A DNA stretch of 64,000 bases, taken from NCBI GenBank assembly GCA_020851375.1, contig JADZCV010000044.1, positions 192,285-256,284 of the forward strand, read 5' to 3'. Positions 548 to 41,314 of this stretch are shown here, one piece after another. The DNA is from Nitrospirota bacterium. GTDB taxonomy: Bacteria; Nitrospirota; 9FT-COMBO-42-15; HDB-SIOI813. A program made the position numbers and the translations under genes. Position 1 is the stretch's first letter; every line of letters begins with the position of its first letter. The notes beneath the pieces were generated by a model. That model saw only the letters and a list, made by a program, of their open reading frames with translations, was not told the origin of the DNA and made no database searches.

Positions 548-1162
548 CTATTTTGCAGCCACTGTCCACAAATTCATAAACAGCTCGAAATACCCGGACC
601 TCATCTTTCCCTGGCTGAATCCGCCTTTGCATAGGAGCGCTGCTATCTTTGAATGGCTGTAGACGTCTTTATGCTCCAGGATCTCTTCAGGGCTGACCAA
701 TCCAAGCGCTGCCATCATTCTTAACAACTTGTCAGTCCAGAAGGCAGGGGTCGTAATGATCAACAGCCCGCCATCATTCAATACCCGGCGGCATTCGTTT
801 AAAACACCGGCAACCCGGTCAGGCTCGAGATGCTCTATGACCGCCAGCATGGTAACTACATCGAAGTAGCCTTCACGGAACGGCAGTGTGTCGTCATTTT
901 CAAAGTCAAAGCTGGACAACGATAAAGGGCCGGCCTGAACAACACCTGATCCTATCCCTTTATCTATCCCGAATTTCTCTTTAAAACTGGTGTTATTTAA
1001 AAAATACGGAAATGTCCCGCAGCCAACATCCAGCAATCGTCCATTCCTCTTCTCCGGAGGTATCAGAGCATTGGCGATCCTGGCCCTTTTTTTTGCAAGA
1101 AGGCCTTCCAATAGCCCGCTGCCCCTTGTTGGTTTCGTATATCCCTCTTTTGTACTCATCAT
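548..1162 (-). CDS. class I SAM-dependent methyltransferase
   Basis: Motif [12 protein letters not shown] and post-motif LAVIEHLEP. 4-nt overlap with the upstream GT2 gene. Confidence 0.8.
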
Positions 1163-1848
1163 CTTCTAAGCAGGTTGTATTTTACTATACACCAGAATGC
1201 CCTGACGCCATCCTTCCACCCTATCTTCTTGCCTTCAGAATAATTCCTGCCGCTGTAAGATATTCCAATCTCGTAGATCCGATACCCCCTTTTGGCAATC
1301 TTTGCTGTAATCTCCGGCTCAAAGCCGAAGCGCTCCTCCTCAATAACTATGTCCTTGAGCACATCCGCCTTGAATACCTTATAGCATGTCTCCATATCAG
1401 AAAGATTAAGATTCGTGCACATATTTGAGATTAATGTCAGAAATGTGTTTCCCAGAGAATGCCAGAAAAACAATACCCGGCGCTCCTCAGTCGTCAGGAA
1501 ACGGGAGCCGTAGACTACATCTGCCCTGCCGTCCAGGATAGGTTTTATCAGTCTGGGGTATTCCTGAGGATTATATTCAAGATCAGCATCCTGAATGATC
1601 ACAACATCACCGCTCGCCTGTTTGAACCCTGTCCTTAGCGCAGCCCCTTTCCCCATATTCTTCTGATGATAGAAGATACGGATATTTGCGTCCCCTTCCA
1701 TGCTTTTCAGGACGTCTCTTGTACCATCAGAAGAATAATCATCAACTATAACCAGCTCCTTGTCCAAATCAACTTCCCCGACCTTTTTGATGATATCTCT
1801 TATAGTATTGACTTCGTTAAAAACAGGGATTACGACTGACAGCTTCAT
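1159..1848 (-). CDS. GT2 glycosyltransferase (polyprenyl-phosphate sugar synthase / DPM1-like)
   Basis: N-terminus [29 protein letters not shown] and DADLEY (DxD-type) motifs, 229 aa. Confidence 0.8.
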
Positions 1849-1864
1849 ATTTACTCCTTCAATG

Positions 1865-2590
1865 TTATGAAATCCTTTCGGCTATACAGACTAACGTCTT
1901 ACCCCAGAACATGGGTATTATTCTTTCAACCAATCGTTGCAGCGGAACACAATAAATATCAAAGAATCTCATGAATGCTGAGACAGATGAATCCTGCACA
2001 GCAGGAGTAACACCAATACACCCGGAAATATACCAGGCCACGCCACCCAACGGATCGGTATAATGCAGTGACCTTATGGTCATATTCGTATCCTCAATTA
2101 TTGCCCGCAGACTGCTTTTTGTGTAGCGACGATAATGTCCAACTGAGCGATCCCACTTACTGAATAACTCCGGTCGTGCGGGAACATATATGCACATCTT
2201 TCCGCCGACAGCCAACATGCTACTTAATTGCCGGACAGCAGCGCGATCATCCGCAAAGTGTTCCAATGAATTTATGCAAATTACAACATCGAATGGGCCA
2301 ACTGCCGGCACGGACATTTCTTCAATTGGAACATCAATTACCGTAACATCAGGATAAGTCCTCCTGATTTCACCGGCAAACAGAGGATCTGGTTCTAATA
2401 CGTATATAGAAGATGATACGGCCTGGTAATGTGGAATATAAGTACCTATTCCAGCGCCAACTTCAATAATCTTCCCGTGTAAATATGGCAGAAAAAAACT
2501 CATAACCCAGCTTGTATAGTGCGGCATGGAAGCCATGTGAGACAATCCTGCAGTCATTTCCTTATCATGTATAGAAATTTGATTAGACAT
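1865..2590 (-). CDS. class I SAM-dependent methyltransferase
   Basis: [11 protein letters not shown] glycine-rich motif and [10 protein letters not shown]. Confidence 0.75.
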
Positions 2591-3289
2591 TTACGTATTT
2601 TTTTTCAACAAGCCGACCCAGAATAAAGGGACCGGCATCAACGTAATAACAGGGACATAATGATACTCCTGCAAGGTATAACCGTTATTGCAATAATAGT
2701 GGATTATATCCTTCGCCGCATGATAATGATCCAACGGTTTACTCTTATTAACAATGATGCGGCCAAGCCGGTACAGAATATTTTCAGTGGGAAGACTCAG
2801 GAGCAGGAGGCCACCACGTCTAAGGGCCTTCTTCAGAAACTGATAAGGTTCATTTAAATCAGCAAAGTGTTCAAACACATCTGTAGCTACAACAAGGTCG
2901 TATAATATATTTGTATCAAATGAATTCATATCCTGCTCAAAGAATCTGATATTAGTCATTCTGTAGTACGTTGCAATCTCCCGTGCATCCCCGAGATCAA
3001 GATCAAGAACAGATACCTCTGTAAATAGATTTCTCAGGGTGGGGAGGAATGCGCCACTCCCTCCACCGCAATCTATCACGTTATAATTCCTGGCAGTGTG
3101 TTTGCCCAGAATCTTATGCGCACAACTCAAGCGCTGCCAGAAGATATTACGGGCTAATGGATTTGGGTGTATGTATATATTGCGTACGTTTGCAGTATCC
3201 GTAAGTGTACACAGGACATCCATCGGTATCCTGACAAATTCACGCAAACCCCCGTTATCACCTGAATGGGTCTTAATTGCCGGCGTCAT
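2591..3289 (-). CDS. class I SAM-dependent methyltransferase
   Basis: VIDCGGGSGAF motif and VFEHFADLNEP. True start may be the internal Met at about 3223 (MDVLCTL), because 3289 overlaps the upstream gene by 17 nt. Confidence 0.75.
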   Translation of the reverse strand: MTPAIKTHSGDNGGLREFVRIPMDVLCTLTDTANVRNIYIHPNPLARNIFWQRLSCAHKILGKHTARNYNVIDCGGGSGAFLPTLRNLFTEVSVLDLDLGDAREIATYYRMTNIRFFEQDMNSFDTNILYDLVVATDVFEHFADLNEPYQFLKKALRRGGLLLLSLPTENILYRLGRIIVNKSKPLDHYHAAKDIIHYYCNNGYTLQEYHYVPVITLMPVPLFWVGLLKKNT

Positions 3290-4214
3290 CTCGTCTTATC
3301 TTCTGATTCAACACCTTTTTAAAGAGCAGGAAATTCTCATGCTGATATTTGCTTATTGTATCAAGTATAAGTCCAATGCTTATCATGATGGCGCTCAAGA
3401 TTCCACAGCTTGCCGCAAGAATTGACAATGGCACATGGTATACATACCTTGTGGTAATATAATCGCGGATAGGCAGATAACCGGTTATAAGACTTGTCGC
3501 GAGGAATATGGCAGCAAGCAAAGAAAAGAATAACAGAGGTTTATAATCTTTTAGTATCATAAATAAGGCCTTCAGTATGAGAATGCCGTCACTGAAGGTA
3601 TTTATCTTGGAATGGCTCCCCTCCGGTCTCAGACCATAATGAACAGGGATCTCTTTTATGGCAAAATTCTTTGTTATCGCCTGCAATGTTAATTCTGTCT
3701 CAATCTCAAATCCTTTTGATTTAAGGGGGACTGATTTTACAAATTCGCGGGAAAAGACCCTGAACCCGGATAATACATCTGTAACCGTTATGGAAAATAG
3801 CCTTGAAACAAGCAGCTTGACCATCCAATTTCCAGCCTTATGGAATACTCTGAATGATCCGGGCATATGGTGTTGAAGCCGGGCGCCTACGACCATCCCT
3901 GCATCACTCCTTTTCAGCGCTTCAATAAGTTCTTTAACAGCGCCTGACGGATATGTATCATCTCCATCACACATAACATAAATATCTGCATCTATCTCTT
4001 CAAACATATGTTTTACAACATTTCCCTTTCCACGATTCGGGGAATGTATGACAATTGCACCTGCATCTTCAGCACATCCGCTGGTCCCGTCAGTTGAATT
4101 ATTATCAAATACATAGACCTCCGCATCTGGCAGAGCCGCCTTGAAGTCTTTTACAACCTTTGCGATCGTCAATTCTTCATTAAGACATGGAATCATCACT
4201 GCTATTTTTTTCAT
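3273..4214 (-). CDS. GT2 glycosyltransferase with C-terminal transmembrane helices (GtrB/ArnC-like polyprenyl-phosphate glycosyltransferase)
   Basis: MKKIAVMIPCLNEE, DNNSTDGT and DGDDTYP motifs; two hydrophobic helices at the C-terminus (LLFFSLLAAIFLATSLITGYL, LSILAASCGILSAIMISIGLIL). Start placed at internal Met 4214 to avoid overlap; the track start is 4247. Confidence 0.75.
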   Translation of the reverse strand: MKKIAVMIPCLNEELTIAKVVKDFKAALPDAEVYVFDNNSTDGTSGCAEDAGAIVIHSPNRGKGNVVKHMFEEIDADIYVMCDGDDTYPSGAVKELIEALKRSDAGMVVGARLQHHMPGSFRVFHKAGNWMVKLLVSRLFSITVTDVLSGFRVFSREFVKSVPLKSKGFEIETELTLQAITKNFAIKEIPVHYGLRPEGSHSKINTFSDGILILKALFMILKDYKPLLFFSLLAAIFLATSLITGYLPIRDYITTRYVYHVPLSILAASCGILSAIMISIGLILDTISKYQHENFLLFKKVLNQKIRRDDAGN

Positions 4215-4234
4215 AAGGGTACCAAAGCCACCTG

Positions 4235-5911
4235 TTAATCGAGACATACAACTGTCTCGGTCCTGACCAGCGGCAGAGTCTTTCTACATGTCACGAGTTC
4301 ATCCCTTCCAATTTCAGTTGCAGAAATTCCCATATCATTGAACCTGATGCGATTTGCATAAAAATTAGAAAAATAAACTTTGACCGGCTTGTTAAGATCT
4401 ATTAAATAACTGAGTTGAGTTTTGAACAGTTCATTATCCTTTAAAACCGCAGTGATTCTTACAGTAGAGATTAAGGCTATGTCTAAAATTAAGACAAAGA
4501 TCACAACCAGTCCTATCCTGGATAAAATCTCCCTCGGCCTGAAGTAAAAACACAGGCCTGCACAAATGACAGGTACCAGCCATAGCTGAGGGGCGTAACG
4601 ACTATACCATGCAACTGGATTTATAATGATTGATATTATTAATAGGAGAATGACTGATATACTCAAAAAAGCAGCCGATGTCCAATTAAAGATTAATACT
4701 ATAATTAAAGAGATTACACTTAAGACCATAGCCCCGCCGAACAGGGGGCCAAAACCTGCCACCCTCACATCCACCTCAATGAACCTCATCAGTTCATCCA
4801 TTTTAAATGTAAAGGGTAATTTCCACGGGCTATCCCATGCAACTGCAGACTCAGAAAAGATGGTCGCAAATATCTTCTCAAGACGATTATAGGATTTCCA
4901 TGTTTCAGGCATGCCAATCTCGATGAGATCAACAGGTGATGAAGTAGTTCCAGGCCAGTATTGCGCTCCAATAGGATAAAAGGGATTTTGATGCATCAAC
5001 AGATTATTAATATAAGGATTATACCCTAAGATAGCAATCCCTATAATGAATGCGAAGGCCGCAGTCCCGGAAATTAAAGCGAGCCTTGCCCTGCCAAGTC
5101 CTCCAAGGATATAAAAAAGAGGCAATATCCCTGTTATCAGTAAGCCGGCATAAACCATACCGGTAGTCTTCACATTTATCACAAGCGTTAAAGAACATGC
5201 CAGTAAAATTAACAATGGAATAATGTCTTTCTTTTCATATATGCAATAGAAGGCCAAACAACATACTATCGTTAGCATAGAAAAGAGATGACCATCCACA
5301 TAATTAGATGGAACCTGGAGAATATTTACCGGATTCAAAGAAGCCAACAACGAAATGATGAATATCAATCCTGATTTAATGTTTGTAGCTTTAAGCATAA
5401 TGCCCATTATCAGGCAGAAAGCGGAAAACATAATTGGGAAATTAAACACCTTGGCGTATTCTATGTATTTTGTTACCTTGTAAATTGATGCCTCATAAAT
5501 CCATGGCGCCTTTGGGTAATACGTTAATCGCGCATCAATATCATTCTTCTCATAACTCCAAATGGGATTCCAGCCATTAGCCAGTCTGTCAATTGCCTCC
5601 TGGTGATAGGTTTGACCGTCCGGAGACAGGTCATAGATCTTTCCGGAAAAATAGAGTGATAACAACAGTAGCGCTATAAATGAGGTGATGAGGATTATAA
5701 ACATGGAAAGATACTTGTCAGGAAAATATTTTTTAGAGGTAAACCATACCCAGTATAACACGCCTATTAGTGATAACAATCCGAAACGTGACAGCGGCAT
5801 ATTCATTAATAAGGTAATGGAACCAATGAAAAACAATCCAAAGATAAATATGATATGTAATGAGCCAGCGATAAACAGAAAGGATGCCGTTCTTTCCCTT
5901 AATCTTTTCAT
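4235..5911 (-). CDS. polytopic integral membrane protein, possible GT-C type glycosyltransferase partner of the adjacent GtrB-like enzyme
   Basis: At least 10 hydrophobic segments, AT-rich gene, no recognisable soluble catalytic motif. Function inferred from adjacency to the GtrB-like GT2. Start set at MKRLRERTASFLF (5911); the track start is 5947. Confidence 0.35.
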   Translation of the reverse strand: MKRLRERTASFLFIAGSLHIIFIFGLFFIGSITLLMNMPLSRFGLLSLIGVLYWVWFTSKKYFPDKYLSMFIILITSFIALLLLSLYFSGKIYDLSPDGQTYHQEAIDRLANGWNPIWSYEKNDIDARLTYYPKAPWIYEASIYKVTKYIEYAKVFNFPIMFSAFCLIMGIMLKATNIKSGLIFIISLLASLNPVNILQVPSNYVDGHLFSMLTIVCCLAFYCIYEKKDIIPLLILLACSLTLVINVKTTGMVYAGLLITGILPLFYILGGLGRARLALISGTAAFAFIIGIAILGYNPYINNLLMHQNPFYPIGAQYWPGTTSSPVDLIEIGMPETWKSYNRLEKIFATIFSESAVAWDSPWKLPFTFKMDELMRFIEVDVRVAGFGPLFGGAMVLSVISLIIVLIFNWTSAAFLSISVILLLIISIIINPVAWYSRYAPQLWLVPVICAGLCFYFRPREILSRIGLVVIFVLILDIALISTVRITAVLKDNELFKTQLSYLIDLNKPVKVYFSNFYANRIRFNDMGISATEIGRDELVTCRKTLPLVRTETVVCLD

Positions 5912-5919
5912 AATCCTTT

Positions 5920-6699
5920 TTAACTTTCTTTGCGGGCTACAGCCCACGCCATATTCTTCTTTTGTCCAACATCCCCTTCGATCCCTATCAGATCACAACC
6001 GCCGTCATTCAGGAACCGCTGCAGGTTGCGGCAGGAAAGAGGGACACCTACCCAGCTCGTGTGTTTTGTCAGGGAAGGTATCAATCCACTGAGCACGAAG
6101 CTTCTATGTTCAAAATTGTACACCCATGTCCTGTCTCTTGAATTTAATCTGCGAAAGGGAGGATCAAGGGTCCGGAATTGCAGCTTCACTATCCCCCCGG
6201 GTTTTAAGATACGGCACATCTCGGCAATTGCTGATCGAACATTGCTCAAAACATGAATATGCTGGATTACTGCATAGGAATAGATGAAATCGGCTGAGGC
6301 ATCAGGAATATCACAATGTCCATGTTCATCGAGTAAAGAAAGACGTGTAACTTCGGGAACAATCTTGCGACTATAGCCCAGCATAGTTGGTGATATATCA
6401 ATGCCGGCGCATTCATAACCAGCGGCCTTCACCGCTCTTAGAATCCTTCCCATGCCTGAACCATATTCTACTATAAAAGTATTACCGGGATTCAGTGGGA
6501 TTCTATCGAGAACAGGGCGCAGGAAGTTGTCAAACATGAATTGTCCCTTTGCAAAGAATACCTCAAGATCTTCCGCTGACCAGTCTTCAGGATTAGAACT
6601 CTTGTCCGCAAATTGCTCCGCCGACATTACGGCAAAAAGTGGATTCTGTTTTGCCTTTTCTTCCCATGAAAGCCTGTGCCTGAACGTTTCGTTAGCCAT
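5920..6699 (-). CDS. class I SAM-dependent methyltransferase
   Basis: IVEYGSGMGRILRAV motif I and following acidic residue pattern. Confidence 0.75.
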   Translation of the reverse strand: MANETFRHRLSWEEKAKQNPLFAVMSAEQFADKSSNPEDWSAEDLEVFFAKGQFMFDNFLRPVLDRIPLNPGNTFIVEYGSGMGRILRAVKAAGYECAGIDISPTMLGYSRKIVPEVTRLSLLDEHGHCDIPDASADFIYSYAVIQHIHVLSNVRSAIAEMCRILKPGGIVKLQFRTLDPPFRRLNSRDRTWVYNFEHRSFVLSGLIPSLTKHTSWVGVPLSCRNLQRFLNDGGCDLIGIEGDVGQKKNMAWAVARKES

Positions 6700-8354: not shown

Positions 8355-8360
8355 TTTTTT

Positions 8361-9305
8361 CTATAGCACCCGCTGTTTTGTCCTGGATCCTCCGCTCTTA
8401 ATAGCCCATTTAAATTCTTTCAGGAGAAAGCCTTTCTTTCTCCTCAGGTGAAGATATGCCATATAAGGGCCCAGATGAGCATTGGCATAATTACCGGCCG
8501 GTGGCCGTAAGCTCAGATGGTAGATAATGCCCAGCGCCTGGCTGAGCACCGGAAATCGAGAGTGCCACGGAGCTGCTCCTTCAGGAAAAAGCGAATAACG
8601 CTGACGCTCAACTTCCTTTTCGTAGTCCGGCTTAGACTTAGGATAGCGTCTGTACCATAGTTCCCTGTTAATCTGTTTAAACGTCCCGTACACAGACATC
8701 TCAAGTAACAGTAGTCTGTCCGGCATAACGCAGTAGGGAAAGACTCCGCATTTCTCAAGAACATTTGTCCTGAAGAGGCCATAGATCATATTTCCAGCCC
8801 CCTCCATTTCCGTACATGCTGCACGGACCCGCTTGATCTTGCTCATGCCCACCGTCTCAAACCGTGACGGCCCGATGGGGAGCCGTTCATCTGTCGGCCC
8901 GATGGCCGCCGTAAGGGGATAGGCCATAACTATCTCAGGATCTTCATTTAAGACATTTACGTGCGCCTGGAGCCACTCGGGATGCCACAGATCATGGTCA
9001 GCAGCCCAGGCGAAATAGTCTGCGCCCATCCTGACGGCCTCAGTAAATGCCTTGCGCTTGTTCATGATCATCCCGAGGCGCTTATCATTCCGGCTATAGG
9101 TGATTCGTTGATCAATAGAGGCATAATGCCGCATGATCTTTTCAGTGCCATCCGACGAACAGTCGTCTGAGGCAACTATTTGAAAATCAGCATAGGATTG
9201 CTTCCGTAGTGAGTCCAATGCAGCATGGAGGTACTGATCCGCGTTGTATAAAACCATGCCGAAGCAGACTTTTGGTGAAGCTGACGTAGTTGTCTTTGTT
9301 TTCAT
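8361..9305 (-). CDS. GT2 glycosyltransferase
   Basis: VCFGMVLYNADQYLHAALDSLRKQSYADFQIVASDDCSSDGT, typical GT2 N-terminus. Confidence 0.8.
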   Translation of the reverse strand: MKTKTTTSASPKVCFGMVLYNADQYLHAALDSLRKQSYADFQIVASDDCSSDGTEKIMRHYASIDQRITYSRNDKRLGMIMNKRKAFTEAVRMGADYFAWAADHDLWHPEWLQAHVNVLNEDPEIVMAYPLTAAIGPTDERLPIGPSRFETVGMSKIKRVRAACTEMEGAGNMIYGLFRTNVLEKCGVFPYCVMPDRLLLLEMSVYGTFKQINRELWYRRYPKSKPDYEKEVERQRYSLFPEGAAPWHSRFPVLSQALGIIYHLSLRPPAGNYANAHLGPYMAYLHLRRKKGFLLKEFKWAIKSGGSRTKQRVL

Positions 9306-9320
9306 CCCAAGGCGGAATGC

Positions 9321-27406: not shown

Positions 27407-27586
27407 TGATGGCCACCCATTCCCGTCATTCCTGACATCCCCGTCATTCCCGACATTCCCGACATCCCCGTCATTCCCGACATCCCCGTCATTCCTGACA
27501 TCCCCGTCATTCCTGACATCCCCGTCATTCCCGCGGAAGCGGGAATCCAGATCCCTGCATAAACCCTTCGGCAGTTTCCCGCCTTA
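27407..27586 (-). repeat. repeat copy 5: 18-bp tandem array plus terminal hairpin
   Basis: About 6.5 tandem units of ccccgtcattcc[c/t]gacat between about 27419 and 27540, then cccgcggaagcgggaatccag hairpin. The unit is an expansion of the cgtcattcc arm of the repeat family. Confidence 0.85.
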
Positions 27587-27871: not shown

Positions 27872-28113
27872 CTGAAAATGCTCCCATTTACCCGTCATTC
27901 CCACGGAACCTGTCCCCGCATGATTTAAGCGGGAAGTGGGAATCCAGATCCAGGCCTCGGTCTGGATTCCCGCTTTCGCGGGAATGACGTTTTTCTTGAT
28001 CATTTCTGGATTCCAGCTTCCGCGGGAATGATGTTTTTCTTGACCATTTCTGGATTTCCGCTTTCGCTGGAACGACGTTTTCGTGACACCTTGCGAGCTC
28101 GAGGCTCATGACG
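27872..28113 (-). repeat. composite palindromic repeat, copy 6 (leader, hairpin, core, two degenerate core half-copies, module C)
   Basis: ctgaaaatgctcccatttacccgtcattcccacggaacctgtccccgcatgatttaagcgggaagtgggaatccagatccaggcctcggtctggattcccgctttcgcgggaatgacg... then ttccgcgggaatgatg / ttccgctttcgctggaacgacg degenerate arms, then gcgagctcgaggctcatgacggttcacc. Confidence 0.85.
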
Positions 28114-31437: not shown

Positions 31438-31452
31438 CCCCGATTGACAACA

Positions 31453-32376: not shown

Positions 32377-33553
32377 CGGTGAGCCGCATAACGATCTCTC
32401 TCAACCTTTCATTAAACTCTTTCTCTCCCCATGAGGCCGCCCGCCTCTTCCCCCTCTCAGCAAGTTCCGTACACAAGCGGTCATCGGTCCATAGCCTCCG
32501 GATACAGTCTGCTATCTCCTCCACAGAATCGGGATTGAAGAGCAATGCCGCATCACCGGCCTGCTCCGGCATCCCGTAGATGCCGGATATAGCCACCGGA
32601 CAGCCGGCAACAAAGGCCTCCATGGGGGGTATGTTCGTAGGTCCATAGTAGGTCGGCATAACCAGCGCCCTGGCACGGCGGTATAATTCATGCATGTATT
32701 CATCCGGAACGTATCCTGGGAAAAAGACATCTTTGTCAAGACTAAGGCTGTGGATGAGACTGACAACCTCATCATAGGAATCGTAAGCGCCTGATTTCGT
32801 TCCGACCAGAACCAGTTTTATATCTGAAATCTCTTTTTTCAATAGCCCCATGGCCTTAATCAGATTACGGTGATTCTTATGCGCCCAGAATCGCGCCGGA
32901 TAAAAAATAAATTTACCGGGCAACCTGTAGCGGGAATCGAAATCAGCCGGGGTTTGCCCGCTTCGTATGTATCTGGGTGCCAGAAGTGGAAGAACGTAAA
33001 CAGGGCCTGCCGGTGCGCCATACGATTCAATCACCTGTTTGCGCCCGAGCTCAGATTCAACAAGGATGCCTTTTGCCCACCGGCAGATGTTTGTGTAAGT
33101 CCGTTCCCGGTTCAGGTATTCCCACCACGAGGCAGATTCCGGGAAACGCCTCTCATAACGGTGCATCAGATCCTGGATGCTGATAAGGGCCGGGACAGGG
33201 ATCTGGAAACCCCGCACATCCTGAGATGGGAATATCCACAGATCGCAATGCTCCCGAATGAGCGCCCTGGCCATGGGATGAAACAGGGGACAGAGCCTGC
33301 GCCATAAACCCATCGGCAGGCCGAGGAGAGTCCAGGCCAGGCCAAAGGCCCGGCCCCAGAAGCCGCGCGGTATCAAGACCGTTTTCAGATTGTACCCTGC
33401 CAGATAGTCCTGCCACAGATCCGACGTGAACCCGACCACCACAGAAAATCTGTCTGAGGGCAGCGCTGCCACAGCATCTATCATGACCTGATTGTACTGG
33501 AATGTGCCGCCTCCCGCCGGTTCGTATTCGAGAAAAAGCCCGATCTTCTTCAT
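32351..33553 (-). CDS. GT4 (group 1) glycosyltransferase
   Basis: C-terminal MPTYYGPTNIPPMEAFVAGCPVAISGIYGMPEQAGDAALLFNP. Confidence 0.75.
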   Translation of the reverse strand: MKKIGLFLEYEPAGGGTFQYNQVMIDAVAALPSDRFSVVVGFTSDLWQDYLAGYNLKTVLIPRGFWGRAFGLAWTLLGLPMGLWRRLCPLFHPMARALIREHCDLWIFPSQDVRGFQIPVPALISIQDLMHRYERRFPESASWWEYLNRERTYTNICRWAKGILVESELGRKQVIESYGAPAGPVYVLPLLAPRYIRSGQTPADFDSRYRLPGKFIFYPARFWAHKNHRNLIKAMGLLKKEISDIKLVLVGTKSGAYDSYDEVVSLIHSLSLDKDVFFPGYVPDEYMHELYRRARALVMPTYYGPTNIPPMEAFVAGCPVAISGIYGMPEQAGDAALLFNPDSVEEIADCIRRLWTDDRLCTELAERGKRRAASWGEKEFNERLREIVMRLTGGIEEYHE

Positions 33554-34686
33554 CCCTTCACCAATGCTGCCCTGAGATGAGTAACGATATAATCCAGCTC
33601 TTCATCAGTCAGATTGGGCGTGCTGGGGAGATAAAAGCCATTCATGGCCACAGCATTTGCCTTCGGACAATCATCAAAATGCGTCCACCCCTTCTGTATA
33701 AAAATGTCCTGCATATTATAAGGGATAAAACCTTCCCTGGTTTCAATGCCTTTTTCAAGCAGCCTTTTCATAATCACAGACCGCTGACCTGCAACATCAC
33801 CCTTTAAGACGACATGATACATCCAGTAAACATTACGGGCATAAGGTTTCTCAACAGGAAGCTGCAGCAGAGAACCCAGGTCCCTGAGCCTGTCCGTATA
33901 GAACGAGGCTATTCTCCTCTTGCCGCTGATAAAAGCCTCTATCTTTTCAAGCTGCGCACAACCGATAGCAGCCTGCAGATTGGTCATCCTGTAATTATAT
34001 CCGATATCCCGGTGCATGAACTTGTTGCTCTCACCGAACGCAAGTCCCCTGATCATACGGGCCCTCTCATAAACAGCACTGTCATTGGTCGTGATCATCC
34101 CGCCTTCTCCGGTCGTGATGATCTTGTTCGCATAAAAACTGAAACACCCGGCTGTGCCGAGGCTGCCGACCTTCCTCCCTTTATATGTCGCCCCATGCGC
34201 CTCAGCGCAATCCTCGAGGACCGGTAAATTATATTTACCAGCAATCTCTGTCACGGGGTCCATATCTGCCGGATGACCAAAGAGATGGACAACGATAATG
34301 GCCCTGGTCCTCGGTGTAATCCTGGATTCCAGCAGGGCTGGGTCAAGGTTCCATGTGTCCTCCTCGATATCAATGGGTATCGGGGTGGCGCCCTCATAAA
34401 TTACTGCAAAGAAGGTGGCCATGTTGGTTAATGTGGAGACAAGAACCTCATCCCCTTTTTTGAGGGACAGGGCAAGCAATGCCAGATGGAGCGCCGTTGT
34501 CCCGCTTGTTGTTGCAACGCCATGCCTGCAGTCCGAATAACCGGCAAAGCCTCTCTCGAATCTTGAAATGTATTCCCCGAAAAAACCTGAAATAGCGCCG
34601 TTAGCCAGTGCATCATTGACATAATTCGTCTCCGCTTCTCCCAATAGCGGCTGCGACACCGGGATATGTCTGCCTTTTACAGTCAT
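33550..34686 (-). CDS. DegT/DnrJ/EryC1/StrS-family PLP-dependent sugar aminotransferase
   Basis: HIPVSQPLLGEAE... ATTSGTTALHLAL... IVVHLFGHPADMD... LEDCAEAHGA. Confidence 0.85.
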   Translation of the reverse strand: MTVKGRHIPVSQPLLGEAETNYVNDALANGAISGFFGEYISRFERGFAGYSDCRHGVATTSGTTALHLALLALSLKKGDEVLVSTLTNMATFFAVIYEGATPIPIDIEEDTWNLDPALLESRITPRTRAIIVVHLFGHPADMDPVTEIAGKYNLPVLEDCAEAHGATYKGRKVGSLGTAGCFSFYANKIITTGEGGMITTNDSAVYERARMIRGLAFGESNKFMHRDIGYNYRMTNLQAAIGCAQLEKIEAFISGKRRIASFYTDRLRDLGSLLQLPVEKPYARNVYWMYHVVLKGDVAGQRSVIMKRLLEKGIETREGFIPYNMQDIFIQKGWTHFDDCPKANAVAMNGFYLPSTPNLTDEELDYIVTHLRAALVKG

Positions 34687-35057
34687 GCCAGCGGCTCCTC
34701 AATCCTGAAAGTATCGCTCTCATATTCCTTCCCCCCTCTGGGTCCTTTCGTAAGGACCAGCAGCTCCGAATATTCCAGCCCCACCAGGGCATGATGTTCT
34801 TCAGGAACTGTCAGCGCAAAATCACCCTTACCGAGGACCGTTTCTGTCTTGTCTTCACCTGGCATGCGGGTTACAAGTTTTACCCTGCCGGACATGACAT
34901 AGTTCCATTGAAATGTATTTTTATGATAATGATTCGCCCGGACAGCGCCTTTTTGAAAGGTAATCACGGTAACGGCATTAATCGCCTCGTTCTCGAGAAG
35001 GTCTGTGATTTTTCCCCTTTCATCATCAAATGAAACAGGCAGACTGATTTTTTTCAT
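34683..35057 (-). CDS. cupin-fold protein, likely NDP-4-keto-6-deoxyhexose 3,4-ketoisomerase (FdtA/QdtA/WxcM-like)
   Basis: 124 aa; HYHKNTFQWNYVMSGRVKL beta-barrel His pair; placed between an aminotransferase and a C-methyltransferase. Confidence 0.55.
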   Translation of the reverse strand: MKKISLPVSFDDERGKITDLLENEAINAVTVITFQKGAVRANHYHKNTFQWNYVMSGRVKLVTRMPGEDKTETVLGKGDFALTVPEEHHALVGLEYSELLVLTKGPRGGKEYESDTFRIEEPLA

Positions 35058-35081
35058 GGATACCCTCCCTGATTAATTTCT

Positions 35082-36308: not shown

Positions 36309-37177
36309 ATCGTCTCCTTTTCAGAACGCATCCATGATGATTCTGGTTTTCTTAATCTGAATATAAAACCCTTGTGGACAGCCTCTCTTCCTTCCAGGTT
36401 AATTATCCCGTCATTTGAGTCAAAATCTTCTATCATGTCATACCGGTCTTTAAAATGTTTCAGAAACTTCTCCAGATTAAAAAACCAGGCAGGAAAACTT
36501 GCCTCATAATGGGCCGGCGGCACATTCTGTATCGTAATCCTGTCACGGGTGTTGTCAGTGAAAAAAAGGGTACGGTCTATAAGAATATATTCGAATGGAT
36601 ATCTGAATATTTCGCCGAGCATCCCGTAAGGATCTTCAAGATACTGCAGAACGCCTGAAAATATGATGACATTGGGTGACTGCGCTTCACAACAGGAGTC
36701 AATGTCATCATAAAATTTCAGTTGTTCGTCTTCAAAATATTTTCTCCCGCACTCAACAAAGTTCCTCTGTTCCACAATATTCCAGTGAAGTTCTTTAAGA
36801 TCCTGCAGAAATTTCCTGTTCTGGAAATAGGTCGTTCCGAGTGACCCGCCAAAATCAATGAGACTGAGCTTATTGCCGCCCTGTGAGGCGCACCACATCA
36901 GCGCCGTCAGCAATGGCCACGAATATTTAATCCTGTCAAAAAGCATGGAATCCGTTTCATGAACAGCCAGACCCTTTTTAACCTGCAGGAGCGAATCTCT
37001 TACCTTTCTCAGAATGACATCAGAGTCATAACCAGTAGAATGTTTTTTTGCATCCCCCCATGTGGCATAATTTCCCGAAAAAGGGGTACCGCAATACAGT
37101 GGGCGCAGGAGGAGCGGGAGCACAGGAGGGGTCAATAATTTTATCATCTTTTTTATTTTATACTGCCTGTCCTGCAT
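36302..37177 (-). CDS. putative methyltransferase, TIGR04325-like family common in LPS clusters
   Basis: PFSGNYATWGDAKKHSTGYDSDVILRKV... LIDFGGSLGTTYF; 291 aa. Confidence 0.55.
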   Translation of the reverse strand: MQDRQYKIKKMIKLLTPPVLPLLLRPLYCGTPFSGNYATWGDAKKHSTGYDSDVILRKVRDSLLQVKKGLAVHETDSMLFDRIKYSWPLLTALMWCASQGGNKLSLIDFGGSLGTTYFQNRKFLQDLKELHWNIVEQRNFVECGRKYFEDEQLKFYDDIDSCCEAQSPNVIIFSGVLQYLEDPYGMLGEIFRYPFEYILIDRTLFFTDNTRDRITIQNVPPAHYEASFPAWFFNLEKFLKHFKDRYDMIEDFDSNDGIINLEGREAVHKGFIFRLRKPESSWMRSEKETIC

Positions 37178-38468
37178 GTTCCAGACCCTGATATTTCCTT
37201 ATGTACACTGTAACGATCGTATACTCCGTTATCAGATAGACCAAATGCGTCAAAAAGGAAGACGCCGCAGCGCCGTAAATACCGTATCCCGGCACCAGCC
37301 ACAGATTCAGTAAAATACAGATTCCCCCTATAAAAAAGCCGACGGTCGGAATAAGATAAGTCTTTTCAAAGTAAATAAGGTAATTGCTGTAGAGCGGCAC
37401 AATGGAACTGAGTATCTGAGTCAGTAATACAATGGGAAGCACCCTCATGACGGATCGGTATTCTGAACTAATGATGCCGAAACTCAGCAGAAGTTCTACA
37501 GCGAACAAGGTAACCAGGGAAATCCCGATCAGAAAGCAGGCGAGGTAGACGATCAGTTTTCTTGTTTTTATGATATTCATCGAGATGTCATTTTCCTTGA
37601 AAAAGAGGGGTTGCCATACATTCTGGACTGTCATGAATATAATAGGTATGACGGCTGAGAGAGAAAATGCCAGATAATAGATGGATAAATCAATAAAGTT
37701 CCCGTACCGTTCCAGAAAGAATTTATCTCCGGAGTTGATGATGATACCCACAATAGCAGCAAGCATCATGGGAAATCCCAGTTTTACAGACCTTACAGCC
37801 TGGCTCAGGTTGAACCTCAGGAACATGCTTTTCAGATACGGATAGCTGAAAATCAGAATAACAAGCCCTTCGATCAGGAAGGAGTACTTAAGCCTGACCA
37901 TAACACTGTCAACAGGCATCATATAAAGCAGAATAATAACTACCCCATGGACAAGGATCAGTTTCAGAAAACCGAATTTCCGGACCAGACTGATCTTTTC
38001 ACTGGTCAGGAAATAATTGATAAGGATTAATGAATAAACAGAAACAATGACCGCGAGTAAGACAGCAGGTCTGTAACTTTCATAATCAATTTCATTCTTG
38101 AAAAGCAGGGAGATAAGCCTGTAATCTAATTTCAGAAAATAAAGAATGAATAAGACTCCGGATAAGAAAAGAAGCTGGATCATGTTCAGTGTAAAGAGGA
38201 AGGTTCCCCGTTCTTCATCGTCTTTGTAGGCATGATACAGTTTGCTTTGGGCAACTGATAATCCATAGTTGAGAATGAGAGAGACCGTGGTGATAATTGT
38301 CAGAAGATAGTTGAATAGTCCGAACTCCGCCTGAGTCATCAGCTTCAGATAAACCGGGAGCAGCAGGACACCGGACGCACTCACCAGGCCGTCAATGCTG
38401 AATAACTTAACGAATCTGTCAACAAGGATGTTCTCTTTATATTTTTTTATATGTCTTGCTGCCTGCAT
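37158..38468 (-). CDS. wzx: Wzx-type polysaccharide biosynthesis / oligosaccharide flippase (MOP superfamily)
   Basis: 436 aa, about 12 TM segments, low-complexity hydrophobic sequence typical of O-unit flippases. Confidence 0.65.
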   Translation of the reverse strand: MQAARHIKKYKENILVDRFVKLFSIDGLVSASGVLLLPVYLKLMTQAEFGLFNYLLTIITTVSLILNYGLSVAQSKLYHAYKDDEERGTFLFTLNMIQLLFLSGVLFILYFLKLDYRLISLLFKNEIDYESYRPAVLLAVIVSVYSLILINYFLTSEKISLVRKFGFLKLILVHGVVIILLYMMPVDSVMVRLKYSFLIEGLVILIFSYPYLKSMFLRFNLSQAVRSVKLGFPMMLAAIVGIIINSGDKFFLERYGNFIDLSIYYLAFSLSAVIPIIFMTVQNVWQPLFFKENDISMNIIKTRKLIVYLACFLIGISLVTLFAVELLLSFGIISSEYRSVMRVLPIVLLTQILSSIVPLYSNYLIYFEKTYLIPTVGFFIGGICILLNLWLVPGYGIYGAAASSFLTHLVYLITEYTIVTVYIRKYQGLEHAGQAV

Positions 38469-38493
38469 CCCATGCCTTATCTTTTTCTCTGCC

Positions 38494-39318
38494 TTATCCT
38501 TTCAACAGAGAAGCCTGTTTCCCTGCTATGACAGCCATATTCCAGTCATGTTCTGTCAGAGGTTTATTCAATTCCGGAAAGGGACACAATTCCAGAACCC
38601 TGAATCCGGCTGTTTCCAGATAATATCTGATCTCCTGTGGAAAGAGATAGCGCAGAAGATGGGATTCCTGTGTCTCGCCCACCAGCCTGTCTCCCTCAAT
38701 TCTCAGGACCCTGAACCGGGTCTCTACAGTATGAGACAGGGGATCAAGCACAGGTTCCGAAAACCGGATAATCCGCTTCTCTCCTCTATTACCGCCCCCC
38801 TTGCCCTTATGCATCACTATTTCCTTCATCCTCATCCCAGGCCTCTCTGTCAGAACCGCATTGCCGTGCCAGCAATCAAATATGAACAACCCGCCGGAGA
38901 CCAGATGGCTTGCTGCCACGCCACATGCGGCAGCTATTGAGGCATTTGTAGTTTGATAACCCATCACGGCAAACATGGAGATTACAGCATCAAATTTCCG
39001 GCGCAGACGGATGCCGGTAATATCTCCCTGATAAAATTCAGCGGAAGATTTCTTTTTGTTTCCCTTTGCCTCTTCCTTCGCCTTTCTCCTGGCTATCCGG
39101 ATCATCTCACGCGACCGGTCAATTCCGACGACCTGATACCCGCGGCGGCTGAGGATAAGGGCGTGCCCTCCTGTGCCGCAGCCCAGATCAAGGATAGTCT
39201 TTACCCGGCATCCGTTTTTTTTAAATGCCGCCTCAATAAAATCGCACTCCCTCTCATAATCCTTATCCTGATAGAAGGCATCGTAGAACCGGGCATACCC
39301 TTTTTTAAAGACTGTCAT
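38494..39318 (-). CDS. class I SAM-dependent methyltransferase
   Basis: ILDLGCGTGGHALIL motif I and FDAVISMF. Confidence 0.8.
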   Translation of the reverse strand: MTVFKKGYARFYDAFYQDKDYERECDFIEAAFKKNGCRVKTILDLGCGTGGHALILSRRGYQVVGIDRSREMIRIARRKAKEEAKGNKKKSSAEFYQGDITGIRLRRKFDAVISMFAVMGYQTTNASIAAACGVAASHLVSGGLFIFDCWHGNAVLTERPGMRMKEIVMHKGKGGGNRGEKRIIRFSEPVLDPLSHTVETRFRVLRIEGDRLVGETQESHLLRYLFPQEIRYYLETAGFRVLELCPFPELNKPLTEHDWNMAVIAGKQASLLKG

Positions 39319-39331
39319 CTTGTATCCTTAT

Positions 39332-41314
39332 TCATCTGATAAACACACTCACAGGTTCCATGGACCACGCCAATGTATAAACATTTCCTCCATGAATATG
39401 CCTCTCCCCAGGAACGGCATTCACAGAAATAATCGCGCATGGAGTAAAAGATGCACCTGCAGATGATTTGACTGCAGAGATATTTTTTACTCCTATGTGT
39501 TCAATCCGGGTCTTCTGTCCATGATCAGCTTGCAGCAGCGCCCAGAATGGGTATTCCCAATCATCCCCTCCCATATATAATCCAATGTCCCGGCATTTCT
39601 GAGACCTGACAAAGGCCGCCGCCTCCCTGTACGGGGTTCCGAGATTCCGCCGGATGCTGAAGTATTGATCAGTCCTGTCACTGGTCAGGATGCTCCTGCC
39701 TTCTGTAAGTGGGATAGGCCTGCTCCCGTAAATCCATGATGGAAACATTGAGACGATATGCCCGGGTGCAATAACGGGGCGGGATACGTTGAAAAAAATC
39801 CAGGGGAGGGCTGATAAAATCAGGATGATCCCTGTCACTTCAGCTAACCTTGCACTTAAGACATCAGACAGCACCACGGCAACAAATGCCGACAGCAGAA
39901 CAAACAGCGGCAGGTGCAGGCGGCTATGCCAGGGCTGCCACTTAAGACAGAGGCTGAACAAGAGGAAAGCGCTACTGACCGCAGCAAAGTAGTACAGGAG
40001 GATCCGTCTGCGGAGTAAATCCCTTTTAATAAAAAGTAGTGCGATGGCAATCCATACTATGAGAAGGTGAACAGGATTTCCCGAAAAGTCTTCAAGCGGC
40101 GCCAATGGCGGGATATGGAATTTTGTCCCGGCCAATGTAGTGCGGGCATCGTTTATCTCCATGCCCATAAGGGTATGAAGCCGGGCAATTCCCCCCTCCA
40201 CTGCAGAGTTAAGCCTTTCAACAGGCGTGCTCATGTGCAGTCCCACGTTTCTGGTTATATTGGAAATCAGGGCCGGCAGTGTATAGGCTTCATTTACAAA
40301 TTTTAATTCCCCGTATGCTCCTTCAGCGCCAGGACCCAGGGGGGAGCCGTACAGATCAAGATTACGGGAATAATGCCCCAGATTGAGGATGACGGCAATG
40401 ACTATCATAAAGCTGATGGATTTCCATGCCTTCCAGCGAAACCTTTGGAAACCCGAACAAATAAGCCAGACCAGGAATGGAAATGTATAAAGATAGGCTG
40501 TCCCCTTTGTCAGCAGGGCAAGACCCAGGCTGCATGCCGCTCCCGCAGACCAGATACTGCCGGCCTGCCCACCCCTCAATTGCATAGTGCAGCAGACGAA
40601 AGAGACCAGCCAGAAAGAGATGACATAATCATTCTGGGTACCTGACGCCTGAAGGATACCCATCGGGATCGTTACAGTGATAACGGCAGCGAGGATCTGG
40701 CTGCGCATATCTCCGCCAAGTTGTTGAACAATCAGCGTAACCCCGATTATACTGCCAATCATACTGAACCATTGAACCAGATTGGCAAACCAATCTCCGG
40801 AGCTTAAAATCTGCAGGTGTGTTACGGCAAATTCAGCCCAGGGGCTTAAATACAACTGCCTTGGGATCGGTGTGGGATAGAACGAAACACTCTGGTTTTG
40901 AATCCAGTGTGCGACCCGGCTCATGTGATAGGTCATGGAATCCCAGTTGTTCGGAGGCGATGCGAGGGCAATCAAACCAGTGACTGAAACAATAAAAATG
41001 ACACCGAATAACCACACATAGGGAATCCTGGATGACCAGGAACTCTTAAACTGTCTGGCCGGATACCTCCTGTTTGTGATCAGGATAATCAAAGCAGCGA
41101 TACAGGCCAGTGTCCAGAGTCCGATCACCCATTCATACACAAGGGCATGAAAAAGACTCAGGATTTCAGTAAAAATTACAAGCAGGACTCCACAGACAAT
41201 GGAGGCAAGTATGAAAGAGCTGCGCCAGTCAAGTCTGTCCGGCATCCTGTAAATTACAAGGAAAATAGCTATGAAACAAAGCAAAGGAATTATTGCCGGT
41301 ATAACTGACATCAA
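39332..41314 (-). CDS. large polytopic membrane protein (possible GT-C fold glycosyltransferase or polymerase/ligase-type enzyme)
   Basis: 660 aa, at least 12 hydrophobic segments plus about 180-aa C-terminal soluble region; first gene of the long co-directional operon. No family motif recognised. Confidence 0.35.
   Translation of the reverse strand: MMSVIPAIIPLLCFIAIFLVIYRMPDRLDWRSSFILASIVCGVLLVIFTEILSLFHALVYEWVIGLWTLACIAALIILITNRRYPARQFKSSWSSRIPYVWLFGVIFIVSVTGLIALASPPNNWDSMTYHMSRVAHWIQNQSVSFYPTPIPRQLYLSPWAEFAVTHLQILSSGDWFANLVQWFSMIGSIIGVTLIVQQLGGDMRSQILAAVITVTIPMGILQASGTQNDYVISFWLVSFVCCTMQLRGGQAGSIWSAGAACSLGLALLTKGTAYLYTFPFLVWLICSGFQRFRWKAWKSISFMIVIAVILNLGHYSRNLDLYGSPLGPGAEGAYGELKFVNEAYTLPALISNITRNVGLHMSTPVERLNSAVEGGIARLHTLMGMEINDARTTLAGTKFHIPPLAPLEDFSGNPVHLLIVWIAIALLFIKRDLLRRRILLYYFAAVSSAFLLFSLCLKWQPWHSRLHLPLFVLLSAFVAVVLSDVLSARLAEVTGIILILSALPWIFFNVSRPVIAPGHIVSMFPSWIYGSRPIPLTEGRSILTSDRTDQYFSIRRNLGTPYREAAAFVRSQKCRDIGLYMGGDDWEYPFWALLQADHGQKTRIEHIGVKNISAVKSSAGASFTPCAIISVNAVPGERHIHGGNVYTLAWSMEPVSVFIR

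Follow-up and report, generated by a model that had tools for sequence, protein, structure and literature searches.

A methyltransferase-rich, putative surface-glycan locus with a predicted ulosonic-acid cassette in an uncultured Nitrospirae lineage

We analysed 64,000 nucleotides of contig JADZCV010000044.1 (assembly GCA_020851375.1), a metagenome-assembled genome (MAG) from an uncultured Nitrospirae lineage, and refer to this whole stretch as the window. From position 1 to 42154 all genes are encoded on the minus strand, and in most cases neighbours overlap or are less than 30 bp apart. The genes encode S-adenosyl-methionine (SAM)-dependent methyltransferases, glycosyltransferases, a Wzm/Wzt ATP-binding cassette (ABC) exporter, a Wzx-type flippase and a cassette predicted to make and transfer an ulosonic acid (Table 1). 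We read this region as one long surface-glycan locus of the O-antigen or exopolysaccharide type, extending from before base 1 to ~42 kb, and assign this reading a probability of about 60%. The locus is a new form of ABC-transporter-dependent glycan locus. The first-pass annotation had described a heavily methylated polysaccharide cluster with two export routes; its observation was confirmed, while its interpretation was partly supported.

Layout and methyltransferase content

The locus continues leftward of the window, because the truncated open reading frame (ORF) at 1–545 runs off the left end; at the other side, the winged-helix regulator is probably the upstream edge. The local gene junctions were reproduced in independent short assemblies from several sequencing runs. 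A related locus whose Wzt is 81% identical shares the gene order gmd-wzm-wzt...GT2-551aa-MT-GT2-MT, in which MT is a methyltransferase and 551aa is a 551-amino-acid (aa) putative transferase discussed below. The related locus L006/L007 (loci and proteins are given by our L and P numbers) lacks the island at 3273–5947 and two methyltransferases. Scans of the window with Rfam and for tRNAs gave no matches.

Nine SAM methyltransferases had been counted at first pass, and all nine are intact ORFs above curated hidden Markov model (HMM) thresholds, the positions originally listed being the low ends of these ORFs. Seven (548, 1865, 2591, 5920, 25558, 35082 and 38494) exceed the gathering score of Pfam class I methyltransferase models, and the two missed by Pfam (9321 and 36302) pass NCBIfam cut-offs. 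A glycine-rich, motif-I-like loop was found in each of them, in five by a strict regular expression and in four variant forms read by eye (DVGCGTF, EYGSGMG, DIGSNVG and DFGGSLG). The calls stand because all nine pass thresholds and carry such loops, and the HMM check for non-methylating Rossmann proteins found none among them. The two most similar share 37% identity over 117 aa, and recent paralogy was rejected. The C-methyltransferase at 35082–36308 has zinc-binding, class I methyltransferase and C-methyltransferase C-terminal domains. For the gene at 9321–10478 the true start is probably downstream of the listed TTG; an independent contig (L001) gives it a length of 372 aa. No kinase domain was detected by Pfam on any of the nine, and none shows a WbdD-like kinase/methyltransferase architecture.

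For the density of methyltransferases we used, as comparators, 80 genome loci that share the 551-aa gene, and their ORFs were searched iteratively with the nine methyltransferases of the window. The comparators held 53 methyltransferases in 1,315 kb (0.40 per 10 kb), a count to be taken as a lower bound because TylF/CmcI-type enzymes are missed, and the richest of them held 4 in ~21 kb (~1.9 per 10 kb). The window, with 9 in 40.8 kb (2.2 per 10 kb, five of them in the first 10.5 kb), lies above all 80, and its 9 out of 37 genes compare with 4.8% of the comparator ORFs (binomial P = 4.7e-5). However, the close relative with the 81%-identical Wzt carries four methyltransferases in 8 kb, and the comparator L010/L025 has at least 6 methylating enzymes when Pfam annotation is used. 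Thus, the density of the window is at the top of the range, yet not alone there.

L010/L025 (Thermodesulfobacteriota MAG CALOBW010000020.1, 1–22637) is itself another very methylation-rich locus. It encodes two C-methyltransferase-like proteins, CmcI-type and TylF-type methyltransferases, a radical-SAM enzyme, an 878-aa fusion of a 551-aa family member with a methyltransferase, and a 3,367-aa protein with methyltransferase, GT2 and GT4 domains.

Glycosyltransferase genes are likewise interleaved with several SAM methyltransferase genes in the mycobacterial polymethylated polysaccharide loci and in Leptospira rfb. The mycobacterial methylmannose/methylglucose polysaccharide and the Leptospira rfb products are cytoplasmic polysaccharides or Wzx/Wzy-type O-antigens, and we know of no such locus that combines a Wzt bearing a carbohydrate-binding domain (CBD), an ulosonic-acid cassette and GT-C modules. 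The TIGR04325 family, to which the methyltransferase at 36302–37177 belongs, is named after the Leptospira locus tag LIC12133.

The ulosonic-acid cassette and its putative transferase

The most interesting content of the locus is a conserved, apparently uncharacterised cassette of seven genes, which encode a NeuB-like synthase, a KdsC-like phosphatase, a short-chain dehydrogenase/reductase (SDR), an aldehyde dehydrogenase, an atypical transketolase, a cytidine monophosphate (CMP)-transferase and the 551-aa protein with a His-Pro (HP) motif as predicted dedicated transferase. The cassette recurs as an operon in more than 10 phyla, with carriers among Acidobacteriota, Chloroflexota, Gemmatimonadota, Nitrospirota/Thermodesulfovibrio, Desulfobacterota, Cyanobacteria, Gammaproteobacteria, Armatimonadota and Candidate Phyla Radiation (CPR) bacteria. 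When genes within 10 kb of a 551-aa family member were counted in the 80 loci, a transketolase was present in 38–40, the CMP-transferase in 37–41, an aldehyde dehydrogenase in 32–34, NeuB in 32–33, the SDR in 28 (median identity 57%) and the haloacid dehalogenase (HAD) phosphatase in 13–19. All six enzymes occurred together in 13 loci, and the commonest order, co-directional, was NeuB-HAD-SDR-ALDH-CMPS-TKT-551aa, where ALDH, CMPS and TKT denote aldehyde dehydrogenase, CMP-transferase and transketolase, respectively.

All six enzymes score below the NCBIfam equivalog cut-offs. In the other loci, the NeuB of the cassette type is ~52% identical to that of the window, and a separate class of matches at ~27–33% identity elsewhere presumably represents canonical NeuB. 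A nonulosonic acid had been predicted at first pass. The NeuB/CMP-transferase route to an ulosonic acid is present, but a nonulosonic product is not established, as synthase, phosphatase and CMP-transferase are all below their equivalog cut-offs. HMM scans of the window found neither NeuC (Epimerase_2) nor a complete PseBCHG or LegBCHG set. Judged from its genes, the cassette is distinct from the canonical sialic, pseudaminic and legionaminic acid pathways. It shares with these, and with the Kdn pathway of Bacteroides, a NeuB-family synthase, a KdsC-family phosphatase and a CTP_transf_3 cytidylyltransferase; on the other hand, three enzymes that none of them uses always accompany it, namely an SDR, an aldehyde dehydrogenase and a transketolase-like enzyme. 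We found no account of the cassette, or of bacterial heptulosaric acid biosynthesis, in the open-access literature.

The transketolase family of the cassette keeps the GSGH, KGH, GHP, GDGxxxEG and SHQ motifs. In transketolase structures, Ser345, Arg318 and Arg474 (human numbering) hold the substrate phosphate; in column counts across the cassette family, an invariant Asp aligns to Ser345 and no Arg aligns to Arg318 or Arg474. Because the phosphate-binding residues are replaced while the cofactor and catalytic motifs are kept, the substrate is probably a non-phosphorylated sugar, and a housekeeping role appears unlikely. We had considered that the transketolase, SDR and aldehyde dehydrogenase genes might be a housekeeping insertion unrelated to the rest; this was rejected, since the three are linked to the 551-aa gene in 28–40 of the 80 loci, and it is also contradicted by the altered substrate pocket of the transketolase. 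The aldehyde dehydrogenase is closest to alpha-ketoglutaric-semialdehyde dehydrogenases. In the Kdo8N route of Shewanella, KdnB oxidises C8 of Kdo and KdnA transaminates the product, and this is a precedent for remodelling the distal end of a free ulosonic acid, via an aldehyde, before CMP activation. The cassette differs from it in having an aldehyde dehydrogenase instead of an aminotransferase, so that a carboxylate rather than an amine would be expected, and in the added transketolase-like enzyme.

The 551-aa protein is annotated as a "capsule biosynthesis protein", and the family has 419 relatives among the GTDB species-representative genomes scanned, homologues in different phyla being 55–68% identical. 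In 34 sequences R372, H374, P375, A376 and E377 of its RVHPAE motif are invariant. Transferases acting with CMP-activated ulosonic acids typically have an HP motif, and the 551-aa protein is accordingly classed as a predicted CMP-ulosonic acid transferase; in the linkage count for its gene, the CMP-transferase was nearby in 41 and NeuB in 33 of the 80 loci. With the KpsC/KpsS beta-Kdo transferases it shares the Capsule_synth match across the His-Pro segment, and its gene is linked with a CMP-transferase and a NeuB-type synthase. However, the match is weak and is confined to the C-terminal half, and the family is tied to a different sugar pathway. The N-terminal half has four conserved cysteines and is without known relative, and by sequence the protein is not GT99. 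In 18 of 77 loci the immediate neighbour of the 551-aa gene encodes a class I methyltransferase, and family members fused with either a GT2 or a class I methyltransferase occur in some genomes; in the methyltransferase fusion (L025/P0281) the fused part is homologous to the methyltransferase at 5920–6699. Two 551-aa paralogues, ~50% identical, were seen in each of six loci (L013 and L023 from Nitrospirae/Nitrospirales MAGs, L017, L056, L068 and L077). Such pairs hint at two linkages or at an oligo-ulosonic acid segment.

Table 1. Features identified in the window, with the HMM or structural evidence for each
Position	Strand	Feature	Evidence
1..545	-	Truncated ORF, GT4 N-terminal-like (weak)	Open frame of 181 aa; Glyco_trans_4_4 16.9 bits, below threshold
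548..1162	-	Class I SAM methyltransferase, 204 aa	Methyltransf_23 47.9, Methyltransf_11 43.1 bits; 4-nt overlap with upstream GT2
1159..1848	-	GT2, 229 aa	Glycos_transf_2 118 bits; AglJ 121, ArnC 77, PpgS 72, all below equivalog cut-offs
1865..2590	-	Class I SAM methyltransferase, 241 aa	Methyltransf_23 50, Methyltransf_12 40 bits; motif I IIEVGAGIG
2591..3289	-	Class I SAM methyltransferase, 232 aa	Methyltransf_23 43, Methyltransf_31 33 bits; motif I VIDCGGGSG
3273..4247	-	GT2 with C-terminal membrane helices, AglJ/ArnC-like	Glycos_transf_2 78.6 bits; hydrophobic residues 235-301
4235..5947	-	Polytopic GT-C membrane glycosyltransferase (predicted fold), 570 aa	No Pfam/NCBIfam match; AlphaFold pLDDT 92.5
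5920..6699	-	Class I SAM methyltransferase, 259 aa, abutting the 551-aa gene	Methyltransf_11 59.8 bits
6699..8354	-	551-aa "capsule biosynthesis protein" family, Capsule_synth-like	Capsule_synth (PF05159) 23.6 bits, gathering 20, residues 334-459
8361..9305	-	GT2, 314 aa	Glycos_transf_2 77.8 bits
9321..10478	-	Putative sugar O-methyltransferase, NanM family	TIGR04371 105.8 bits, cut-off 44; domain residues 171-308
10384..11052	-	Hexapeptide-repeat acetyltransferase, Vat/CatB/WbbJ-like	Hexapep 29.4 bits; Vat 138 bits, below equivalog cut-off
11130..12407	-	Wzt ABC ATPase	ABC_tran 88.6 bits; nucleotide-binding domain residues 1-255, CBD residues 256-425 (window 11130-11642)
12404..13225	-	Wzm ABC-2 permease	ABC2_membrane 70.6 bits; similar to Wzm/RfbD and KpsM
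13222..14178	-	GDP-mannose 4,6-dehydratase-like (gmd)	GDP_Man_Dehyd 369 bits; TIGR01472 gmd 359 vs cut-off 415
14175..14879	-	CMP-ulosonic acid synthetase (CMP-transferase)	CTP_transf_3 87.7 bits; PseF 146 bits, cut-off ~205
15107..17023	-	Transketolase-like thiamine diphosphate enzyme	Transketolase N, Pyr, C domains; below equivalog cut-offs
17036..18526	-	Aldehyde dehydrogenase	Aldedh 561 bits; GucD 541 bits, cut-off 770
18648..19457	-	SDR	adh_short_C2 142 bits
19788..20345	-	KdsC-type HAD phosphatase	KdsC 117; TIGR01670 102.5 vs 106.95 bits; Kdn-9-P phosphatase 88.6 vs 180
20308..21435	-	NeuB-family phosphoenolpyruvate-condensing synthase	NeuB 278 bits + SAF; NeuB_NnaB 306 vs 400; PseI 239 vs 340
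21341..22372	-	GT2, 343 aa	Glycos_transf_2 103 bits
22347..24311	-	AsnB-type glutamine amidotransferase	Asn_synthase 223, GATase_7 163 bits; TIGR01536 431 vs cut-off 267
24290..25438	-	GT4	Glycos_transf_1 135 bits
25558..26331	-	Class I SAM methyltransferase, 257 aa	Methyltransf_31 78, Methyltransf_11 68 bits
26285..27406	-	DegT/PseC-like sugar aminotransferase	DegT_DnrJ_EryC1 379 bits; PseC 244 bits, below cut-off
27400..28092 (ORF 27584-28003)	-	Small GIY-YIG (UPF0213-like) gene and repeats	GIY-YIG 57 bits
28116..29117	-	NAD-dependent sugar epimerase/dehydratase	Epimerase 153 bits; dTDP-glucose 4,6-dehydratase 146 bits, below cut-off
29104..31437	-	Glycosyltransferase with two GT4 modules, 777 aa	Glycos_transf_1 + Glyco_transf_4, two stretches each
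31453..32376	-	GT2, weakly rhamnosyltransferase-like	Glycos_transf_2 77 bits; TIGR01556 86 bits, below cut-off
32351..33553	-	GT4	Glycos_transf_1 103 bits
33550..34686	-	DegT/LegC-like sugar aminotransferase	DegT_DnrJ_EryC1 382 bits; LegC 316 vs cut-off 420
34683..35057	-	Small cupin	Cupin_2 33.7 bits; FdtA only 18 bits
35082..36308	-	NDP-hexose C-methyltransferase architecture	Methyltransf_14 185, Methyltransf_13 84, Methyltransf_23 55 bits
36302..37177	-	TIGR04325 (LIC12133) family methyltransferase	233 bits, cut-off 80
37158..38468	-	Wzx-type (MOP superfamily) flippase	Polysacc_synt 45.2 bits, gathering 28.2; ~12-13 hydrophobic segments
38494..39318	-	Class I SAM methyltransferase, 274 aa	Methyltransf_25 65, Methyltransf_11 54 bits
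39332..41314	-	GT-C membrane glycosyltransferase, ArnT/PMT-like, 660 aa	PMT_2 37.4 bits, gathering 26.1; ~12 hydrophobic segments
41474..42154	-	Winged-helix regulator, MarR-type EPS-associated-like (EPS, exopolysaccharide)	HTH_24 37.7 bits; TIGR04176 54.9 bits, cut-off 88
14972-14997, 18614-18639, 19564-19589, 19749-19774, 25507-25526, 27524-27549, 27963-27988, 28005-28031, 50241-50266 (outside the locus)		Palindrome TGGATTCCCGC-N4-GCGGGAATGAC, resembling repetitive extragenic palindromic (REP) elements	

Export, decoration and the number of glycans

The first-pass annotation had proposed a carbohydrate-binding extension at the C terminus of Wzt that recognises a methylated chain end. The nucleotide-binding domain of Wzt is closest to that of Aquifex aeolicus (E = 4e-64), and the C-terminal domain reached 16.5 bits against Pfam Wzt_C, below the threshold of 30.4. 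Because a sequence profile of the C-terminal 170 residues found no relative in the PDB, a fold search was needed. The AlphaFold model, made with 22 homologues in the alignment, had a pLDDT of 88.5, and its 13 best fold matches were all solved Wzt CBDs (A. aeolicus, Escherichia coli O9a and Klebsiella/Raoultella O12), with a probability of 1.0 and a TM of ~0.6 for 6o14/8dky, 2r5o and 5hno. By its predicted fold, the extension is a genuine CBD. Solved Wzt CBDs bind 3-O-methyl-mannose, methyl-phosphate or beta-Kdo (PMC9445017). As identity to them is only 6–16%, the ligand is not inferable here, and nothing shows recognition of a methylated terminus, so this second part of the proposal is not supported.

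Many phyla contain full-length Wzt homologues in abundance, at ~60% identity (~50% in the C-terminal domain), and PF14524 is present in many of these. In 12 of the 21 Wzt proteins encoded near 551-aa genes, homology extends through the CBD. As in the window, wzm/wzt are interspersed with cassette genes in two loci from Nitrospirae MAGs (L013 and L023); therefore the ulosonic acid is plausibly part of the ABC-exported glycan here and is a candidate cap, and the putative CMP-ulosonic-acid transferase is as good a terminator candidate as a methyltransferase. A specific pairing of this type of CBD with the 551-aa gene was also considered and was rejected because of L008 and L009, which are described below.

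The glycosyltransferases, put at about 10 at first pass, number eleven, comprising five GT2, three GT4 genes, one Capsule_synth-like and two GT-C. The GT2 at 3273–4247 spans the AglJ model end to end (232 bits, below the cut-off of 325). The top fold matches of the model of the 570-aa membrane protein encoded next to it are AftA, PglB, ArnT, ALG12, Pmt4 and AftD, and in its family D106, D110, K146, D218 and K260 are invariant. As its predicted fold is GT-C, we rejected the possibility that it is a Wzy polymerase. Two of its 56 homologues have DUF2142. Homologues (P0122–P0176) are hypothetical proteins of ~550 aa with no Pfam model, from Anaerolineae, Omnitrophota, Brevibacillus, Neobacillus and the archaeon Methanolobus. 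Sequences in the PDB included no relative of the PMT_2 protein at 39332–41314, and no GtrA- or ArnE/F-type flippase was found. Since two AglJ/ArnC-like synthases and two GT-C enzymes are present, the locus is predicted, from sequence matches and a modelled fold, to encode periplasmic decoration from lipid-phosphate donors.

The acetyltransferase, the AsnB amidotransferase and the two aminotransferases of the first-pass annotation were all recovered by HMM. The gmd-like gene, which is directly upstream of wzm also in L001 and L007, would be the entry point to a 6-deoxyhexose. AsnB presumably amidates a sugar carboxylate, and the small cupin is possibly a sugar ketoisomerase.

Two export routes had also been proposed. 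Both Wzm/Wzt and a Wzx-family flippase are indeed present, but no Wzy was found by Pfam among all ORFs of the window, and Wzz, GNVR, Bac_transf and Glycos_transf_4, the last two as models of an initiating phosphoglycosyl transferase, had no matches within it, and the one polymerase candidate (4235–5947) has a predicted GT-C fold. This weakens the case for two routes. The Wzx has no relative among PDB sequences either, and a conservation search for the module on its side gave only four relatives, three of them on short contigs.

A fusion of two clusters at the site of the GIY-YIG gene had been raised as a possibility. This gene lies between inverted copies of the palindrome TGGATTCCCGC-N4-GCGGGAATGAC, with a tandem array of 9-nt period (CATTCCCGA/CATCCCCGT, ~12 copies, 27400–27551) downstream and three 44-nt direct repeats (27961–28092) upstream. 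The listed ATG at 28003 falls inside these repeats, so the real start is probably a GTG near 27870. The gene is a selfish insertion and stands outside the pathway. The palindrome gave seven matches against 0 expected, and two more copies came from the terminator and repeat scans. It occupies at least eight gaps, among them most of the larger intergenic ones, always in one orientation; several of these gaps fall within the cassette, whose genes form a tight operon in other phyla. Because copies recur inside the conserved cassette and outside the locus, the palindrome is a genome-wide intergenic element and no evidence of a fusion, which we thus rejected.

Without such a fusion, the locus could still serve two independent glycans side by side, namely an ABC-exported ulosonic-acid polymer (before base 1 to ~27.4 kb) and a Wzx-flipped oligosaccharide with amino and C-methyl sugars (28.1–41.3 kb), the latter taken over by a GT-C enzyme, or else by a polymerase or ligase whose gene lies elsewhere. 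The Wzx, C-methyltransferase, cupin, DegT, TIGR04325 methyltransferase and PMT_2 GT-C genes are grouped on the right, relatives of the TIGR04325 methyltransferase adjoin DegT-like and MT38494-like genes on other contigs (L093) with no wzm/wzt in view, and the locus with the 81%-identical Wzt has the left-hand gene type only. Gene GC content across 1–41314 is mosaic as well, from 38% to 56%, with low-GC islands at 3273–5947, 9321–11052, 20308–26331 and 36302–38468; a mosaic GC content is typical for polysaccharide loci built by horizontal exchange. However, all genes run in one direction and overlap or adjoin closely, the sole large gap (27.4–28.1 kb) holds the selfish gene and a palindrome that is also found inside the cassette and so marks no boundary, the Wzx is without accompanying Wzy, Wzz or initiating transferase, and promoter and terminator scans gave no excess over shuffled sequence. 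We regard two glycans as possible but rather doubtful. Glycosylation of proteins (S-layer, pili or other surface proteins) instead of lipid A-core, with the GT-C enzymes as oligosaccharyl- or mannosyl-transferases, appears improbable. It would fit the several GT-C/PMT_2 membrane proteins and the TPR-tailed membrane proteins encoded just upstream (42354–47649), the best match of the GT2 at 3273–4247 to AglJ, an archaeal S-layer N-glycosylation enzyme, and the homologues of the 4235 GT-C in Bacillales and a methanogen, which lack lipopolysaccharide. Against it, Wzm/Wzt with a CBD is a hallmark of polymer export, and Pfam scans of the window detected no PglB-, PglL- or Wzy_C-type domain. It is also very improbable that several of the methyltransferases are housekeeping or small-molecule enzymes that do not act on a glycan, with an enrichment devoid of functional meaning. 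Seven of the nine do match only generic class I models without a substrate-specific family, but the enrichment is significant, most of the genes overlap or abut same-strand glycosyltransferase genes, pairs of a methyltransferase with GT2 or with the 551-aa gene are kept (as the GT2-229/MT-203 pair at 1159/548 is in L006/L007) or even fused elsewhere, and TIGR04371 and TIGR04325 are sugar- or O-antigen-associated families.

For the single, ABC-exported polymer, the chain end could be set in more than one way. In the manner of E. coli O8/O9a and A. aeolicus, a terminal methyl or phosphomethyl cap, added by one of the methyltransferases and read by the CBD, could fix the chain length. The confirmed CBD fold agrees with this, and among solved structures it comes closest to the A. 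aeolicus domain, whose ligand is 3-O-methyl-mannose (PMC9445017). Moreover, gmd is the immediate upstream neighbour of wzm, an arrangement that a D-rhamnose/mannose-type polymer would lead one to expect, and two methyltransferase genes are within 5 kb downstream of wzt. At such low identity to the solved CBDs, however, ligand specificity is not transferable, no methyltransferase of the window carries a kinase domain, related Wzt proteins occur in loci without any methyltransferase (e.g., L009), and the putative CMP-ulosonic-acid transferase is equally well placed as terminator. A methyl-type cap is therefore a tentative option, to which we give less than even odds. The ABC-dependent O-antigen systems of E. 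coli O8/O9a, Klebsiella O12 and A. aeolicus have in common with the window Wzm, a Wzt with nucleotide-binding domain and C-terminal jelly-roll CBD, and gmd beside the transporter, the candidate cap-formers here being the methyltransferases and the CMP-ulosonic-acid transferase. In contrast to them, the window shows no WbdD-type kinase/methyltransferase ruler in Pfam scans and no GT99 WbbB by sequence, and it has far more methyltransferases and extra GT-C and Wzx modules.

Several observations weigh against our main reading, including the pathway proposed below. The transferase role of the 551-aa protein was deduced from the 23.6-bit Pfam match and the HP motif, and a sequence profile found no relative of it in the PDB; likewise, the roles of transketolase, SDR and aldehyde dehydrogenase were inferred from chemistry. 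No initiating transferase, WaaL, Wzy or Wzz is encoded in the window, and the GC content also fits a mosaic of separately acquired modules. Of the 49 long loci, only 16 have wzm/wzt no more than 10 kb away from the 551-aa gene, and the closest Wzt proteins from outside the lineage (62–64% identical; L008 and L009) have no 551-aa gene within 10 kb, so co-occurrence does not support a link between the CBD and an ulosonic-acid cap.

Beyond the regulator, at 42354–47649 and 62353–63945, the window encodes four large polytopic membrane proteins, maybe more GT-C-type glycosyltransferases adjoining the locus. Three have C-terminal TPR arrays and a membrane part without Pfam match, and the fourth (44234–45913) has a weak PMT_2/DUF2079 match. 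Three tandem FGE-sulfatase (formylglycine-generating-enzyme-like) paralogues of 276–322 aa lie at 47646–50134. At 50333–61502 are genes for a multihaem cytochrome c of 896 aa, in which the CXXCH motifs are paired, and for two fn3-containing proteins, one of 686 aa that also has He_PIG and one of 1,779 aa; all three are probably cell-surface or extracellular electron-transfer components.

A proposed pathway and its meaning

In the pathway that we propose, a polymer containing a 6-deoxyhexose derived from GDP-mannose would be built on a lipid carrier in the cytoplasm. The cassette would condense phosphoenolpyruvate with a sugar phosphate and then remove the phosphate, giving a 3-deoxy-2-ulosonic acid whose far end would be remodelled, its terminal alcohol being converted via an aldehyde to a second carboxylate, and/or by a two-carbon change. 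CMP activation of the product would follow, and the 551-aa transferase would attach it. Neighbouring methyltransferases may O-methylate the ulosonic acid and other residues, while the C-methyltransferase would act at the level of the nucleotide sugar. A terminal cap, either a methyl group or the ulosonic acid, the latter possibly methylated, would license export by Wzm/Wzt through the CBD; the GT2/GT-C pairs would add further sugars on the periplasmic side from polyprenyl-phosphate donors, and Wzx with the neighbouring amino- and C-methyl-sugar genes may be devoted to a side branch or to another lipid-linked unit.

Perhaps, though the odds are clearly below one half, the cassette makes and installs an undescribed but widespread sugar with a second carboxylate at its distal end and/or a two-carbon change, often O-methylated, which in this lineage is the export-licensing cap read by the CBD of Wzt. 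If true, methyl, methyl-phosphate and beta-Kdo would be joined by a fourth kind of O-antigen cap. Knowing the cassette sugar might also bring to light a new signal that ends the chain in ABC-type polysaccharide export. The locus offers a concrete case, open to testing, of extreme glycan methylation in an uncultured lineage, and it exposes a conserved cassette and transferase family that extends from Nitrospirae to Chloroflexota, Cyanobacteria, Acidobacteriota and CPR bacteria. Naming the cassette sugar would extend the known chemistry of sialic-acid-like sugars and would give a function to thousands of proteins that are annotated only as "capsule biosynthesis protein".

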